This document shows positions 11,583 through 49,516 of a stretch of 52,556 nt of DNA, piece by piece. The notes under the pieces are model-generated. The model saw nothing but the letters and a program-made list of their open reading frames with translations. It had not been told where the DNA came from and ran no database searches. The DNA lies in assembly GCA_020428015.1 (NCBI GenBank), contig JAGQNQ010000002.1:1-52556 (forward strand), written 5' to 3'. The stretch's first letter is position 1. Each line of letters begins with the position of its first letter. This stretch comes from Candidatus Saccharimonadota bacterium. Lineage in GTDB: Bacteria; Patescibacteriota; Saccharimonadia; Saccharimonadales; SZUA-47. Both the position numbers and the translations under genes were made by a program.

Positions 11583-11658
11583 TGGTGGGGGTACCTGGAC
11601 TTGAACCAGGGACCAATCGGTTATGAGCCGACTGCTCTAACCACTGAGCTATACCCCC
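11583..11658 (-). tRNA. tRNA with CAU anticodon, probably tRNA-Ile2 (lysidine-dependent)
   Basis: Minus strand reads GGGGGTATAGCTCAGTGGTTAGAGCAGTCGGCTCATAACCGATTGGTCCCTGGTTCAAGTCCAGGTACCCCCACCA. It folds into a clean cloverleaf with an encoded CCA. From memory, the D-arm, variable region and T-arm closely resemble E. coli ileX, so the Ile2 versus Met assignment is tentative. Confidence 0.9.
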
Positions 11659-15892: not shown

Positions 15893-16185
15893 TTCGTCGC
15901 AATGAACTGCGCAGCGTCAAGTAGATCTTTCGCTACATTGGTTGCGTTCGGAGTCTCACTAGCCGTACCTGTTAGTACTTAGATCGTTTTGGTGCCCGCG
16001 TTGATTTGCTATCGCAGTCTAGAAAAATTGCTTTTATCACTTGAGTTAATGATAGTACTTTATTTTGCGGGCTTTCGCGCCCAGACCCACGCCATACTTT
16101 TGACTACAGTCTCAAAACCGGGGTTCCCCGCAAAACCTGTTTTGTGGGGTGGAGTGTTTGCAAAAAGTCCGCGGCCTGGGAATTA

Positions 16186-16210
16186 ACAAAATAGCCGGCG
16201 AACCGGCTAT
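16186..16210 (-). terminator. rho-independent terminator just after the tRNA-fMet-3'-like segment of unit 5
   Basis: Minus strand reads ATAGCCGG-TTCG-CCGGCTAT followed by TTTTGT. Confidence 0.6.
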
Positions 16211-16221
16211 AAATTCTATCT

Positions 16222-16312
16222 TGGTAGCGGGTCCGCCAGCTGGCGGAAGGACTCGTCTATAAATGTTCGCTCGGTAACGTGCGAAACGCACGCTCGCTCA
16301 GCCAAGCAAAGA
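16222..16312 (-). repeat. tRNA-fMet-3'-end-terminated repeat unit (copy disrupted by a 16-nt palindrome)
   Basis: Minus strand reads TCTTTGCTTGGCTGAGCGAGCGTGCGTTTCGCACGTTACCGAGCGAACATTTATAGACGAGTCCT[TCCGCCAGCTGGCGGA]CCCGCTACCA. It is about 90 percent identical to 16948-17025. Confidence 0.7.
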
Positions 16313-16321
16313 CTCCCGTCT

Positions 16322-16651
16322 TTATCTAACGACCGTGCGTAAAAGTCCAAGATTTCCAGCAAATGAAAAAGTTCTTCCGTCGTCTGTTACTATAGTGCTG
16401 CCCGGTTCAAGGTGTGTTAGAGAACAGCTGTCATCTATATATACTCCATCGCCAGAAACTACTTCATAACGATGTCTTCCGCCACGCCAAGTTTCACAAA
16501 AGCGCTCTGCGGTTAGCTGTGAATACCAGACAATTCCTTCACCGGTTTCGGGATCTCTTAACCAGCATTCCTCATCAAGATTCACTTGGGGCATATTTGA
16601 GTAAGGCATTCCCAAATCTAATTTTTTAGGTATAAGTCCTTCTCCTGCCAT
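16322..16651 (-). CDS. hypothetical 109-aa protein embedded in the tRNA-fMet repeat array
   Basis: The ORF has an AGAAAGAGAG RBS-like stretch and its own TTGTAC-18-TATAAT promoter. I recognise no family. Confidence 0.4.
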   Translation of the reverse strand: MAGEGLIPKKLDLGMPYSNMPQVNLDEECWLRDPETGEGIVWYSQLTAERFCETWRGGRHRYEVVSGDGVYIDDSCSLTHLEPGSTIVTDDGRTFSFAGNLGLLRTVVR

Positions 16652-16733: not shown

Positions 16734-16782
16734 GGGTAGGACTCGCCCACATTCTGCGGGCCTGAAAGTAGCGGGGGTAGGA
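16734..16782 (-). repeat. two permuted fragments of the tRNA-fMet 3' end flanking a 22-nt hairpin module
   Basis: Minus strand reads TCCTACCCCCGCTAC-TTTCAGGCCCGCAGAATGTGGG-CGAGTCCTACCC. The same 22-nt module occurs next to the Met-tRNA 3' copy at 24404-24425. Confidence 0.6.
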
Positions 16783-16912
16783 ATATAACTTCGCTGCAGA
16801 GCAGCTTAGTATATAATCCGCCCATTTTACGCCTTCGGCTAGGGGGATTATCGTACCTTCGCTCTCCGCCAGCTGGCGGATCGCTATACGGTTCTCGCCC
16901 TGCGCCGATACA

Positions 16913-16941
16913 AGAAAAAACAGCCACGATGTGTGACTGTC
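16913..16941 (-). terminator. rho-independent terminator after repeat unit 2
   Basis: Minus strand reads ACAGTCAC-ACATC-GTGGCTGT followed by TTTTTT. Confidence 0.6.
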
Positions 16942-16947
16942 TTTTCT

Positions 16948-17087
16948 TGGTAGCGGGGGTAGGACTCGACTATGAATGTTCGCTCGGCAACATGCGTAAC
17001 GCATGCTCGCTCAGCCAAGCAAGGATTCCTCAATATGCCACTGGCATATTTCGCCTATCGGTTCTCGTCCAACACCGAAACATGAAA
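16948..17087 (-). repeat. tRNA-fMet-3'-end-terminated repeat unit 2
   Basis: Positions 16948-16969 are identical to the tRNA 3' end at 17118-17139 (tggtagcgggggtaggactcga). The body carries the GGCGAA-hairpin-TGAG-nnn-TCCTTGCTTGGCTGAGC module, which is also present at the tRNA-Lys locus. Confidence 0.7.
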
Positions 17088-17111
17088 AAGGCCCTACACA
17101 AGGTAGGGCTC
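17084..17111 (-). terminator. rho-independent terminator of tRNA-fMet
   Basis: Minus strand reads GCCCTAC-CTTGT-GTAGGGC followed by CTTTTTC. Confidence 0.7.
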
Positions 17112-17117
17112 TTTTCA

Positions 17118-17192
17118 TGGTAGCGGGGGTAGGACTCGAACCTACGACCTTGTGGTTATGAGCCACACGAGCTGCCTCTGCTCCACCCCGCG
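17118..17192 (-). tRNA. initiator tRNA-fMet (CAU)
   Basis: Minus strand reads CGCGGGGTGGAGCAGAGGCAGCTCGTGTGGCTCATAACCACAAGGTCGTAGGTTCGAGTCCTACCCCCGCTACCA. It has the 1:72 C-U mismatch and a CGCGGGG acceptor, as in bacterial initiators. CCA is encoded. Confidence 0.92.
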
Positions 17193-17342
17193 TCGTCGGC
17201 GTGTGATGGCGTTCTCGCCGCACCGCCGATGAAAACAAGTTTCCTCGGACGCTGCTTGCATTCTCGCCAAGCCGCCTCCTCTCATTTTTGCGAATCCCCT
17301 CGCAAAAATGTATGAGCTGCAAAGCTCTGAAGAGTGGTCATT

Positions 17343-17989: not shown

Positions 17990-18208
17990 TCTGCTGCGCC
18001 CTTGACTCGTGCCAAAACCGCCAATAAAGCGTACATATGCCAAGTTGGCACTCTTGACCTGTGTCAAGAATGCCAGGCCTTGCCAGCTCCCTGCACATCC
18101 TTGGCACTACCGGAGTTAATTTTTTTCTCTAAAACGTATCTACGGATACGTTTTATCAAAAGAAAATTAATCCATCAGCACCAATGAAGCACAGAGAAAC
18201 AGGCAATT

Positions 18209-18235
18209 CTGGCACTCTTGACACGTGACTGCCAG
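18209..18235. promoter_or_regulatory. CIRCE-like inverted repeat overlapping the hsp20 promoter
   Basis: CTGGCACTC-ttgacacgt-GACTGCCAG lies inside a perfect 11-bp inverted repeat GAATTCTGGCA...TGCCAGAATTC (18205-18240). The promoter is TTGACA (18218-18223), a 17-nt spacer, then TACAAT (18241-18246). Confidence 0.6.
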
Positions 18236-23533: not shown

Positions 23534-23730
23534 CTGTGTATAGTTACTTTCCTCTTAATATCTTTGCAGATCGACCAGTTTAGCGAGGATGTGTAACGTT
23601 GATAGTTTCTCTGTGTACTCTTCACTCATTTATACTCTTGCAAGCTCTATTATCCCACAAAATGCAAAAATCAACTAATTTTTTCACGAATAAATAACAG
23701 AGGAGGATAAGCAGCACTATAAATATACTA

Positions 23731-23759
23731 TTGACAAAAAATAAAGCATAAGCTATAAT
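23731..23759 (+). promoter_or_regulatory. perfect-consensus sigma70 promoter with no ORF downstream
   Basis: TTGACA (23731-23736), a 17-nt spacer, then TATAAT (23754-23759). Confidence 0.6.
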
Positions 23760-23766
23760 AGTGCTC

Positions 23767-24340
23767 AGTTGATTAAAAAACAAAAAATCAACAAAAACAA
23801 AAATTAAATCAAAGGAACGAACGAAAATGTAAACGTCATTCAAAAAACGTTACACGGTTCCTACGAACCAAAAGGCTGCGCAGCCATCAAGTCTACACCT
23901 TATTTCGGTCGGAACGAGCGATTTTTTCCCACACTTTTCATCATATAAAAAAGTGCAAAAAACAAAAAATTGCTCGTAAACCCATCAAAATCTTTGGGGA
24001 AAAGTGAGAAAAATTGAAGCTTGAAACCAGAGTAAGGTCTATGCGATACTAGGTGAGTCATAGACAAAAACAAAAAAATCAAAAAAGCACCTGTAACAAA
24101 TGTTAGTTGCGTGCACTAAAACAAATAGAAAGGAGTAGCTCTTTAAGCTCTAATTTCTTAAAAAGGAAAAAGAGCTGGGCGAATAACCTATATGAGTTAC
24201 GAACGAGAAGAATCAAAGAGTCTTTTGGTCAAAATTTATGACCGTATCTTTGACAACTAAGATAAACTAGAGCAATCTAGAACAGGAAAAGAACTTCTTC
24301 GGATTAAAAGGTCAGTCCCTTCCGAAGAAGTTTTTATTTT
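23767..24340 (+). ncRNA. candidate ~570-nt A-rich, hairpin-rich non-coding transcript of unknown family
   Basis: It is bounded by the consensus promoter and by a terminator (aacttcttcgga 24292-24303 pairing with tccgaagaagtt 24321-24332, then a T-run). The longest ATG ORF I can find on this strand is 22 codons. At least six stem-loops are separated by CAAAAAACAAAAAAT-like tracts. Confidence 0.35.
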
Positions 24341-24350
24341 TATCAAGAAT

Positions 24351-24536
24351 TAAAAATCCCATCATGGGATGAGATTATTATTTTGGTAGCAGGACCGAGA
24401 TTTTCCCACATTCTGCGGGCCCGAAACTTCATCTTTGCAAACAAGTTTGCAAGAGAAGGTTTCCTTGCGAAAGTTCACTGAACTTTCTCACTCGTGACCC
24501 TATGCCGCGCTCAAATACCGAATACTAATATCAAAA
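24351..24536 (-). repeat. 186-nt unit: a 133-nt structured body plus a 53-nt perfect copy of the tRNA-Met 3' end and terminator
   Basis: Positions 24351-24403 are identical to 24537-24589. The body contains the hairpins GAAAGTTCA-G-TGAACTTTC, TTGCAAAC-TT-GTTTGCAA and CCCGCA-GAA-TGTGGG. Confidence 0.7.
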
Positions 24537-24569
24537 TAAAAATCCCATCATGGGATGAGATTATTATTT

Positions 24570-24646
24570 TGGTAGCAGGACCGAGATTTGAACTCGGGAC
24601 CTCAGGCTTATGAGTCCTGCGCTCTAACCAACTGAGCTATCCTGCC
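24570..24646 (-). tRNA. tRNA with CAU anticodon, probably elongator tRNA-Met
   Basis: Minus strand reads GGCAGGATAGCTCAGTTGGTTAGAGCGCAGGACTCATAAGCCTGAGGTCCCGAGTTCAAATCTCGGTCCTGCTACCA. From memory, the D-arm is identical to E. coli elongator Met, so the Met versus Ile2 call is tentative. Confidence 0.9.
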
Positions 24647-24697
24647 GTGCTTGAGGGACAATTATAACAGATATGAGGAACGTTTCCTAGGGGCGGC

Positions 24698-49173: not shown

Positions 49174-49198
49174 CTTTTTATCTGTTAACAGGTAGAAT
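49170..49198 (+). promoter_or_regulatory. sigma70-type promoter of tRNA-Lys
   Basis: TTGACT (49170-49175), a 17-nt spacer, then TAGAAT (49193-49198). Confidence 0.55.
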
Positions 49199-49221
49199 AT
49201 ACCTCTGTTAACCTAAAAAAC

Positions 49222-49298
49222 GGGACCATAGCTCAGCTGGTTAGAGCACCTGCCTTTTAAGCAGGGTGTCCTGGGTTCAAGTCCCAGTGGTCCCTCCA
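49222..49298 (+). tRNA. tRNA-Lys (UUU)
   Basis: GGGACCATAGCTCAGCTGGTTAGAGCACCTGCCTTTTAAGCAGGGTGTCCTGGGTTCAAGTCCCAGTGGTCCCTCCA. It folds into a clean cloverleaf with an encoded CCA. Confidence 0.95.
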
Positions 49299-49299
49299 A

Positions 49300-49482
49300 A
49301 GAATGGCCACCCTTCAGGGGTGGTTTTTCTTTGGATTGTCTCCTGAAACTTACCTAAAAGGGCACCTTGAGTGTCCTGCTGGCGAAGAAGTTCTGCGAAC
49401 TTCTGAGTTTTCCTTGCTTGGCCGAGCATATGCTTTAGCTTTTTGCGAGCAGAAAAGGCGCAAGTCCCAGTGGTCCCTCCAA
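49300..49482 (+). repeat. 183-nt non-coding unit ending in a 22-nt perfect copy of the tRNA-Lys 3' end
   Basis: Positions 49461-49482 equal 49278-49299. It contains a terminator (49305-49329) and the GGCGAA-hairpin-TGAG-nnn-TCCTTGCTTGGCCGAGC module (49381-49428) shared with the fMet array. Confidence 0.7.
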
Positions 49483-49485
49483 TAA

Positions 49486-49516
49486 AAAGTCCAACTCGGA
49501 AGTTGGATTTTTTTTA
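49486..49516. terminator. bidirectional rho-independent terminator (for the tRNA-Lys unit and nhaA)
   Basis: TCCAACT-CGGA-AGTTGGA (49490-49507) is flanked by an A-run and a T-run. Confidence 0.7.

Follow-up and report, generated by a model that had tools for sequence, protein, structure and literature searches.

The window analysed here is the whole stretch of 52,556 nt formed by positions 1-52,556 (forward strand) of contig JAGQNQ010000002.1, from the Candidatus Saccharimonadota bacterium assembly GCA_020428015.1. Cassette units, about 1.3 kb in total, were identified at three of its four transfer RNA (tRNA) genes. Their modules, built from two hairpins and a conserved core, are bordered on one side by an intact tRNA gene and its terminator and on the other by a repeat of the 3' end of that tRNA. 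The units very probably represent a lineage-specific family of non-coding, non-autonomous and structure-constrained mobile cassettes of about 173 bp, located behind tRNA and transfer-messenger RNA (tmRNA) genes. The tRNA at 11583-11658 is the only one in the window without a cassette unit, and the remaining content of the window consists of housekeeping and transport genes. A tandem array of units follows the initiator-type tRNA-Met gene (tRNA-fMet), where the following features were found.

17193-17335, minus strand: leader of tRNA-fMet with degenerate module-like pieces GGCGAGAAT (17268-17260) and GGCGAGAAC (17219-17211)
17118-17192, minus strand: intact gene for initiator-type tRNA-Met(CAT), anchoring the array (ARAGORN; Rfam tRNA, 60.6 bits)
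17081-17117, minus strand: terminator hairpin of unit 1 (A-run, GCCCTAC stem, T-run; terminator scan)
17060-17070, minus strand: inverted T-arm copy (rcT) of unit 1, GGACGAGAACC, read from the sequence
17009-17059, minus strand: 5' half of the unit 1 module (covariance model R1, 57 bits, E 4.7e-15)
16970-17008, minus strand: 3' half of the unit 1 module, with hairpin 2 CATGCG-TTA-CGCATG (17005-16991) and the tail ...GAACATTCATAG
16948-16969, minus strand: displaced tRNA-fMet 3' fragment of unit 1, TCGAGTCCTACCCCCGCTACCA, 22/22 identical to the gene from T-loop to CCA
16768-16947, minus strand: unit 2 of the array, with the same sequence in the related strain L164
16734-16762, minus strand: type-2 module stump, GGCCCGCAGAATGTGGG (16762-16746), fused to a partial fMet fragment, CGAGTCCTACCC
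16322-16651, minus strand: orphan open reading frame (ORF) of 109 aa (ORF list), standing where the last unit would have its terminator, rcT and hairpin 1
16222-16312, minus strand: 5'-truncated module with core TCTTTGCTTGGCTGAGC (16312-16296) and hairpin 2 (16292-16278)
16191-16210, minus strand: distal terminator of the array (terminator scan)

The segment repeated downstream of tRNA-fMet is the part of the gene from the T-loop to CCA. Unit 1 (17117-16948) has a period of 170 bp and is closed by the displaced fragment TCGAGTCCTACCCCCGCTACCA. When folded, its terminator, the 3' third of the tRNA and the inverted T-arm copy form a single long hairpin. The rcT GGACGAGAACC is the reverse complement of GGTTCGAGTCC, with GAG replacing TCG in the centre of the loop. 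The 5' half of the module opens with GATA-GG, of which GG forms a small hairpin with the CC of the rcT, and continues with C-GA. Hairpin 1, AATATGCC-AGT-GGCATATT (17050-17032), is followed by GAG-GAA and by the core TCCTTGCTTGGCTGAGC (17025-17009); the minus strand from 17055 to 17009 accordingly reads GGCGA-AATATGCC-AGT-GGCATATT-GAG-GAA-TCCTTGCTTGGCTGAGC.

Unit 2 has its own terminator (16947-16911) and an rcT, GGGCGAGAACC (16900-16890), followed by GCGA, a hairpin-1 variant TCCGCC-AGCT-GGCGGA (16880-16865) and GAG. It carries a differing 3' half and ends in a degenerate fMet fragment (16789-16768). The stump at 16762-16734 is a third module type within the array, and its 17-mer GGCCCGCAGAATGTGGG recurs at 24421-24405 as the end of a cassette at a second tRNA-Met gene. 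The truncated module is 87% identical to unit 1 over 75 nt (repeat family D2) and is followed by the fMet fragment CGAGTCCT[TCCGCCAGCTGGCGGA]CCCGCTACCA, which is split by a 16-nt palindrome at 16247-16232. This perfect palindrome, TCCGCCAGCTGGCGGA, occurs twice in the window, as hairpin 1 of unit 2 (16865-16880) and inside the distal fMet fragment (16232-16247). Strain L164 has TACTGCCAGCTGGCGGA in place of the distal palindrome. The units at 16762-16734 and 16312-16222 are decayed copies, both truncated and without hairpin 1. The pieces in the leader look as if the functional tRNA-fMet gene itself sits in an older unit. A promoter-like site of tRNA-fMet is located at 17371-17343, about 150 nt upstream. 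tRNA promoters share the motif ATCTGTTAAC or ATCTGTTATAAT (window 49183-49215 and 24655-24680; loci L091, L131 and L164).

The 109-aa ORF has a promoter-like site of its own at 16720-16692 (terminator/promoter scan) and no Pfam match. Its sole homologue among 5.8 billion proteins, with 94% identity, is located on a 771-nt contig of a related strain. The ORF was rejected as a sign of general cassette cargo because of this single homologue.

Two further loci in the window carry cassettes, one on each strand.

49222-49298, plus strand: intact tRNA-Lys(TTT) gene (ARAGORN; Rfam)
49299-49380, plus strand: terminator of the Lys cassette (49305-49325 plus T-run) and degenerate inverted T-arm region
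49381-49462, plus strand: module of the Lys cassette (model R1, 60 bits, E 5.9e-16)
49463-49483, plus strand: displaced tRNA-Lys 3' fragment CAAGTCCCAGTGGTCCCTCCA, 21/21 identical
24570-24646, minus strand: intact tRNA-Met(CAT) gene, the third cassette locus (ARAGORN; Rfam)
24404-24533, minus strand: divergent type-2 module at tRNA-Met (model R1 match at 24489-24467, E 0.006)
24348-24403, minus strand: displaced tRNA-Met 3' end with its entire terminator; direct repeat of 56 nt, 98% identical to 24534-24589 (repeat family D3)

A single unit with a period of 183 bp was found at tRNA-Lys, and a terminator (49484-49513) follows its displaced fragment. The module consists of GGCGA, hairpin 1 AGAAGTTC-TGC-GAACTTCT (49386-49404), GAG-TTT, the core TCCTTGCTTGGCCGAGC (49411-49427), the hairpin-2 region and the tail ...AAAAGGCG. 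The rcT of this cassette is weak, with a longest match of 6 nt. The hairpin-1 sequence is also present in loci L023 (Trp) and L058 (tmRNA). The tRNA-Met locus (24384-24530), which was absent from the first-pass annotation of the window, belongs to the same family. Two other features had also escaped that annotation, namely the position of every copy between a tRNA gene and a displaced 3' end of the same tRNA, and the truncation of several units in the fMet array. Its type-2 module, also found in loci L143 and L142, keeps hairpin 1, GAAAGTTC-AGT-GAACTTTC (24487-24469), and has another 3' half ending in GGGCCCGCAGAATGTGGG (24422-24405). An AT-rich, ORF-free stretch of 800 nt (23540-24340) adjoins the Met cassette. 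In the relative GCA_020428065.1 (L155, 803-1804), a 333-aa TerC gene lies between the AT-rich stretch and a gene for an RRM protein; the TerC gene is absent from the window.

The first-pass annotation had described the fMet and Lys modules as two copies of one element with identical flanks around hairpins of different sequence. The quoted module sequences are present, apart from a shift of one position in the minus-strand GGCGAA, which starts at 17055 and not at 17056; its plus-strand counterpart occupies 49381-49386. Pairing is perfect and the loops are of 3 nt in both copies as described, while the helices are of 8 bp instead of 7 (AATATGCC/GGCATATT and AGAAGTTC/GAACTTCT, with flanks C-GA...GA-G). 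The statement that every stem position differs between the copies was wrong: five of the seven quoted positions differ (five of the eight in the true stem), and A3 and C7 are the same. The one compensated pair reported in hairpin 2, between CATGCG-TTA-CGCATG (17005-16991) and CGTGCG-TTT-CGCACG (16292-16278), was confirmed, and so was the presence of GCGA-TCCGCC-AGCT-GGCGGA-GAG (16884-16862) at the hairpin-1 position of the next unit. The 17-mer core, with up to three mismatches, occurs three times in the window versus 0.18 times expected, and none of 100 shuffles reached three. Folding z-scores were -2.85 as RNA and -2.26 as DNA for the fMet unit, and -0.22 as RNA and -0.97 as DNA for the Lys unit. 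Two copies alone are weak evidence and single-sequence folding is moderate, and the case therefore rests on comparative data.

A scan of one genome per species with the exact pattern gave 13 loci. Eleven of these were true modules, all from Candidatus Saccharibacteria/Saccharimonadales, and the other two were chance matches in coding regions. A scan of metagenomes gave 112 loci. After hairpin filtering and removal of duplicates, the window, genome-scan and metagenome loci contained 77 non-redundant true modules, and the host of every attributable copy was Candidatus Saccharibacteria. The covariance model R1, built from hairpin 1 and the core, recovers both full copies in the window at 60 and 57 bits, along with the truncated core and the Met-locus hairpin. 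Scans of viral contigs (IMG/VR, three patterns) yielded chance matches in coding regions and no true module, and identity with a phage or plasmid attP was rejected on this basis. Searches with Rfam 15 at the gathering score identified only the four tRNAs in the window. In eight module-bearing loci searched at E up to 1, tRNAs and chance matches were obtained and none fell on the module; ten more loci gave only tmRNA and tRNA at the gathering score. Membership of a known RNA family was rejected for want of any Rfam match. No description of such units in Saccharibacteria or Patescibacteria was found in the literature searched.

The common order of a unit is tRNA, terminator hairpin, rcT, small hairpin, hairpin 1, 18-mer, hairpin 2 (P2), tail and displaced tRNA 3' end. 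The terminator hairpin is long, with pairing that reaches CCA/TGG, and the small hairpin after the rcT has 2-4 bp and a GNRA-like or 3-nt loop. The module itself is composed of C-GA, the 8-bp hairpin 1, GA-G, the invariant 18-mer UUUUCCUUGCUUGGC, P2 and a tail. P2 is longer than hairpin 1 and occurs in several sequence variants; the tail is about 9 nt long and ends in (G)T(T)C. Other module 3' halves combine with the same 5' half of terminator, rcT, small hairpin and hairpin 1. A tRNA on the same strand ends 63-78 nt before hairpin 1 in about 45 of the 77 units. At least 14 tRNA species are targets, including Lys, Met/fMet, Leu (three anticodons), Glu, Trp, Val, Ala, Ser, Pro, Arg, Gly, Tyr and Asn, and tmRNA is the target in eight loci. 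Many tRNA genes in the cassette-bearing loci carry no unit. At a few loci, the module abuts an antisense tRNA or is enclosed by long inverted repeats of non-tRNA origin.

The period, measured from the T-loop of the gene to the displaced T-loop, was 162-187 bp with a median of 173 bp (n=30). The displaced fragments, 22-27 nt long, are identical to the tRNA from T-loop to CCA in at least 30 loci. Junctions in the T-loop were found throughout, and in L143 a type-2 module is inserted in the anticodon loop. In L023, L025/L127, L031 and L143 the intact gene is preceded by a displaced 5' tRNA copy that carries the module in its T-loop, and it is in this displaced copy that the anticodon-loop module of L143 sits. 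Compared with the functional genes, the displaced 5' tRNA copies of L025 and L031 are altered specifically in the anticodon loop, which has substitutions and 1-2 extra nt. Such changes may be footprints of insertions like that in L143.

The classical footprint of tRNA-targeting integrases is an intact proximal gene followed by a direct repeat of its 3' end, with the repeat beginning in the T-loop or anticodon loop; the units, those at tmRNA included, show this footprint. Arrays of tRNA 3' remnants are also found in tycheposon islands (bioRxiv 10.1101/2020.12.28.424599). The units could on this ground be seen as inert scars, the attP arms left after kilobase-sized tRNA-integrating elements had lost their interior, with the hairpins being terminators or insulators kept against read-through. 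In most copies UUUUCC comes after GA-G; the Lys copy, in which hairpin 1 is followed by this tract, was flagged as terminator-like (stem 8, GAGTTTTCCT; terminator scan), and some window units are truncated. Nevertheless, such an origin is very unlikely. Random internal deletions are not expected to give the tight size of 162-187 bp at 14 or more targets in many genomes. No larger element with a module was found, with none in IMG/VR, the units lack kilobase cargo and no recurrent or adjacent integrase was detected near 71 loci. The invariant 18-mer and the conserved GA/GA flanks and loop are unexpected for a plain terminator, the base of the hairpin-1 stems is rich in AU, and the fMet copy, with GAGGAAUCC and no U-tract, still keeps the hairpin.

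Base pairing in hairpin 1 was counted in 69 units with a 3-nt loop, giving 552 stem cells. The units contain 40 distinct 5' arms, and 527 of the 552 cells (95%) are Watson-Crick pairs; the others are 18 G·T, two A·C and five other mismatches. Covariation was tested on 57 distinct sequences over an 11-pair helix with 500 shuffles. The number of doubly changed cells was 121 versus 31 ± 4 in the shuffles, and the covariation score was 0.585 versus 0.164. Neither value was reached in any of the 500 shuffles, and sliding the partners by 1-3 columns gave scores of at most 0.114. The tandem G·A flanking the stem is replaced by A-U/U-A or G-C/U-A in three loci, and since the G·A positions exchange to Watson-Crick pairs they belong to the helix. 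The P2 helix also covaries, with compensated pairs within the family. The central claim of the first-pass annotation, a structure conserved while the sequence changes, stands because the 57 distinct homologous hairpins keep pairing through compensatory change; homologues exist in 77 non-redundant copies, and the stem positions vary with compensation. Chance or junk was rejected by the 17-mer statistics and the covariation. The added remark that this is not decaying junk holds for the module and not for every copy, as some of the copies in the window are decaying.

The 18 G·T against two A·C indicate that the tRNA-sense strand is the strand under structural selection. A tRNA-like fold of the module with the fragment, or a fold of the opposite strand, was rejected; a T-stem partner was lacking, and the wobble asymmetry favours the tRNA-sense strand. 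The sequences of hairpin 1 and P2 do not follow the identity of the target, and the hairpins are therefore not guides. The same sequences occur at different targets, which led to the rejection of either hairpin as a guide.

The strand asymmetry bears on whether the module is primarily a functional non-coding RNA, transcribed by read-through from the strong tRNA promoter and released by tRNA 3' processing, with the DNA cassettes as its genes. Such an RNA might be guide- or bridge-like, with the antisense T-arm at its 5' side and the sense tRNA 3' segment addressing both strands, or it might be a regulatory or decoy RNA. Besides the strand-specific excess of G·U over A·C (18 versus 2), this explanation has in its favour the tandem G·A flanks that can be exchanged for Watson-Crick pairs, a small hairpin with GNRA-type loops and a hairpin 2 with CUUG loops. 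Terminators bracket each unit, the choice of strand follows the direction of tRNA transcription, and a conserved scaffold is surrounded by an antisense left-half and a sense right-half copy of the target. It is still considered unlikely. A strong terminator precedes every module, and the window scan found no promoter between terminator and module, where only about 25 nt are available. No Rfam match was obtained even at E up to 1, hairpin and P2 sequences are uncorrelated with target identity, and no effector gene is linked to the modules. Furthermore, the sense segment is a full duplication of 22-61 nt, far longer than known guides. The first-pass annotation had also proposed a folded single-stranded recombination site such as an integron attC. 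The context is at least as compatible with a folded recombination site as with an RNA gene standing on its own, in that tandem units are bounded by tRNA 3' copies, contain an inverted T-arm, lack a promoter and have terminators on both sides; the units are, however, not integron attC sites by membership.

Several observations point to mobility of the units. Near-identical modules are present at Lys, fMet and Ser genes, and an identical block of terminator plus module occurs twice in one contig. Arrays mix unit types with different terminators. A terminator family, TCCTCCGTCGC...CTATGGAGGA, whose inner stem covaries, is found directly after the CCA of Gly, Ser and Arg genes (L072, L087 and L138). 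The tRNA-Leu(CAG) loci compared for terminators were not syntenic. Polymorphism between strains was observed in the window array. Strain L164 (97-100% identical) matches the window across unit 2, across the ORF and to the end of the last fragment, and diverges completely 2 nt past the CCA of that fragment (about 16220). At 663-771, L164 has another terminator and flank, with a T-loop-like piece, GTTCGAGTC. All eight same-strain metagenome contigs (99.8-100% identical) end at 15923-16205, with their other ends scattered, and a contig from the opposite flank starts at about 17455 (loci L147-L154 and L161 for the two flanks together); another contig starts inside the module of the Met locus. The 1.3-kb fMet array was never assembled in the same-strain metagenome contigs.

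No enzyme linked to the units was found. Pfam searches of the 20 largest ORFs in the window gave no integrase, transposase or tyrosine recombinase, and hence no candidate for the integron integrase IntI; the cassettes are free of ORFs except for the one orphan ORF. All-against-all clustering of 592 ORFs within 4 kb of the 71 loci revealed no recurrent family. Pfam searches of the cluster representatives and 147 further proteins gave only housekeeping functions, save one DDE transposase (L065) and XerC/D-like proteins. The XerC/D-like proteins, two in number and both at a syntenic tRNA-Arg locus, are the only tyrosine recombinases near modules.

The rcT follows its target. It matched the T-arm of its own neighbouring tRNA over 9.5 nt and those of other tRNAs over 6.6 nt, and it tracks unusual T-loops such as that of Gly, GGGTTAGAGTCCC. 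A generic search for closing stems was too wide, with controls as high as the signal, and the targeted rcT test was used instead. The tmRNA loops GGCAGTA, GGTAGTA and AGCATTA are copied by their rcT. The tmRNA genes with these non-canonical T-loops (L046, L058, L096, L021, L070, L136 and L115/L073) were all missed by ARAGORN and found by Rfam. The displaced copy of tmRNA reads ...GTTC|GTACCC, which places the junction after position 4 of the T-loop, with GTTC supplied by the tail of the module. Folding of the tRNA 3' third together with the terminator and the inverted copy gave one long hairpin in 33 of 35 loci, with a mean of -44.5 kcal/mol compared to -20.9 kcal/mol for shuffles.

In another explanation, units are copied in by nicking and fold-back, with target-primed synthesis in which a resident unit is represented by an RNA or by single-stranded DNA. 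The module would be transcribed or copied together with the downstream fragment and terminator, and elsewhere this 3' block would pair with the same tRNA gene. Copying of the module would be primed by a nick in the T-loop, and a second nick would be made after the terminator. The hairpin end would then fold back (CCA:TGG) and prime itself, writing the inverted acceptor strand and T-arm. A long target-site duplication and an inverted target copy would result, with a polymerase or reverse transcriptase acting in trans, and the units would be bacterial elements resembling short interspersed nuclear elements (SINEs). The inverted copy does begin directly after the T-run of the terminator with TGG(T), the complement of ACCA, and continues through a degenerate complement of the acceptor into the T-arm. 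The 5' half of the T-loop of the functional gene is copied, odd tmRNA loops included. The tail always provides GTTC at the junction, which would be microhomology with G53-C56 of any tRNA, and direct repeats of 56-61 nt that include the terminator are found at the Met locus of the window, L096 and L115/L073. The module is RNA-like, its folding strand follows the orientation of the tRNA and not the direction of replication, and retargeting would be explained without any target sequence borne by the element. However, copies of the host terminator are predicted, whereas unrelated terminators flank successive units in arrays and most single units, and cassettes at Gly, Ser and Arg genes share one terminator family. 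Even next to identical direct repeats the inverted copy has imperfections, and no reverse transcriptase or nickase was linked to the units among window ORFs or neighbouring proteins. Group II introns and diversity-generating retroelements aside, no target-primed retroposon is known in bacteria. Copying-in of this kind is judged improbable.

The layout of hairpin 1 and the core recalls the nick site of HUH enzymes, which consists of a strand-specific hairpin followed by an invariant single-stranded motif. The units might be miniature HUH single-strand transposons, either IS200/IS605-like (of the kind of the PATE and REP elements discussed below) or IS91-like derivatives, with hairpin 1 and the single-stranded CCTTG/CTTGG as the nick site and GTTC of the T-loop as the target. 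CTTG occurs twice in the core, the junction falls after GTTC, the linker from the foot of hairpin 2 to the junction is constant at about 9-10 nt, and an enzyme in trans would be as in REP/RAYT. Insertion of such transposons leaves the target unduplicated, whereas the cassettes regularly come with duplications of 22-61 nt, and an interrupted tRNA would not be restored. TnpA, TnpB, Y1/HUH and IS91 transposases were all absent from 170 neighbouring proteins, and no omega or guide RNA was matched in Rfam. A HUH origin is the most doubtful of the explanations and highly unlikely.

The duplication of the tRNA 3' end, the restoration of the gene, the use of tmRNA, the tandem accretion and the uniform size argue for a discrete mobile unit and not for random scars. 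The cassette supplies a replacement tRNA 3' end (T-loop position 57 to CCA), an intrinsic terminator, an inverted T-arm and the conserved module. Integration would push the original 3' end of the gene downstream, and repeated integrations would build tandem arrays in which the newest unit adjoins the gene. A site-specific recombinase encoded elsewhere in the genome would act in trans within the block of identity from T-loop to CCA. Its substrate would be a small excised cassette whose tRNA-sense strand folds. The rcT with its small hairpin would pair with the T-arm copy and rebuild a double-stranded target, and the hairpins of the module would serve as structural recognition elements. Movement of the cassettes by such a trans-acting recombinase in the T-loop-to-CCA block is the mechanism favoured here, with odds judged to be close to even. 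The unit architecture, target duplication, uniform size, covariation, strand asymmetry, absence of a linked enzyme and polymorphism between strains are observed, while excision as a circle, the type of enzyme and DNA as the folded strand are inferred.

A number of points weigh against movement by a trans-acting recombinase. No circular junction, empty site or enzyme was seen, and an "empty" site in the form of an rcT-loop-T hairpin without a module was not found either. A duplex circle of 173 bp is very small for synapsis by a tyrosine recombinase. The same module lineage has target-matched flanks at more than 15 targets. The rcT reproduces the 5' half of the T-loop of the functional gene, which is missing from the direct copy in the cassette, and a simple circle model thus needs an extra step of copying or correction. 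In four loci, direct repeats of 56-61 nt include the whole terminator, which looks more like target-site duplication than an att identity block. The GC skew is positive across the window, and cassettes on the minus and plus strands therefore fold on opposite replication strands; exposure of the lagging-strand template as a source of single-stranded DNA was rejected on the strength of this skew. Finally, GNRA and CUUG loops, tandem G·A and extensions rich in G·U are RNA-like features. The copied loop in the rcT, the long repeats with terminator, the RNA-like loops and the folding on opposite replication strands would all be explained by nicking and fold-back copying.

A more far-reaching proposal is that of a previously unknown mobile system, in which gene-free cassettes of about 173 nt enter at the universal T-arm of tRNA and tmRNA genes and are retargeted by sense and inverted copies of the target. 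It is tentative and somewhat unlikely. The system could be integron-like, acting on folded strands with T-arms as multiple 'attI' sites, or it could be target-primed and SINE-like or RNA-guided, with the enzyme located elsewhere.

Saccharibacteria have tiny and streamlined genomes, and yet the window spends about 1.3 kb on these units. If active, the cassettes would be the smallest site-specific integrative elements described, and a natural system in which a single scaffold is directed to more than 15 different essential RNA genes and leaves them functional. The questions touched by the family include the recognition of T-arms by integrases or other enzymes, the origin of attC-like structured sites, the plasticity of reduced episymbiont genomes and assembly breaks at tRNA loci. 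Should the module prove to be an RNA, it would be a new and widespread class of structured RNA in the Candidate Phyla Radiation. Under both alternatives, annotation can make immediate use of model R1 and the unit architecture.

Apart from the cassettes, operator-like inverted repeats were noted before heat-shock genes in the window, at 18046-18080, 18210-18227, 35199 and 35356. The repeat TGGCACTCTTGAC...GTCAAGAATGCCA precedes hsp20, and TTAGCACTC, which is CIRCE-like, precedes dnaK.

The guide RNAs of transposon recombinases, such as the bridge RNA of IS110 and the omega RNA of TnpB/IscB, are structured scaffolds to which the units may be compared. As in these, a scaffold of about 100-180 nt is flanked by target-matching segments, antisense on the left and sense on the right. 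The cassettes differ in having no adjacent recombinase or nuclease gene, real duplications of 22-61 nt, no Rfam match, a terminator before the scaffold and no visible promoter. Repetitive extragenic palindromes and bacterial interspersed mosaic elements (REP/BIME), as well as palindrome-associated transposable elements (PATE), resemble the cassettes in being short and intergenic, in their strand-specific hairpins between conserved flanks, in the many copies found per genome and in an enzyme located elsewhere. In contrast to these, the cassettes are found strictly at tRNA and tmRNA 3' ends, have long duplications, restore their target and form a larger composite unit.

In the CTX phage, attP(+) is a folded single-stranded DNA that mimics the duplex of the host dif site. 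Likewise, two inverted target-like segments of one cassette strand, the rcT with its small hairpin and the T-arm copy, can rebuild a duplex, and the GAG variant gives central mismatches as in attP(+). The target here is the T-arm of a tRNA and not dif, and no phage genome is attached.

Tandem accumulation of tRNA-targeting elements is known from the accretion of cis-mobilizable elements (CIMEs) and integrative and conjugative elements (ICEs). The cassettes resemble islands that integrate into tRNA and tmRNA genes in the order of intact tRNA, element and displaced partial tRNA, in the crossover in the T-loop (anticodon loop in L143), in the use of tmRNA, in the outward push of older units, in arrays of partial tRNAs and in the occurrence of non-autonomous derivatives. 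They are unlike these islands in being gene-free, of only about 173 bp, without an integrase in cis and uniform across more than 15 targets. The inverted T-arm copy and covarying hairpins also set them apart from known attP arms.

Compared with integrons, the cassettes are nearly empty, enter at many tRNA T-arms instead of one attI, have no IntI or Pc, and have a conserved centre of several hairpins with an invariant 18-mer. Their inverted boxes, CTTGAAC ... GTTCAAG or GTTCGAG, recall R''/R' and fit RYYYAAC/GTTRRRY in part; read by eye, they share AAC/GTT and miss two of seven positions per side. In common with integron attC sites, the cassettes accumulate in tandem beside a fixed entry site, an enzyme acting on them in trans is proposed, and the variable site is defined by structure, hairpin 1 and P2 keeping their pairing over their sequence with one active folding strand.

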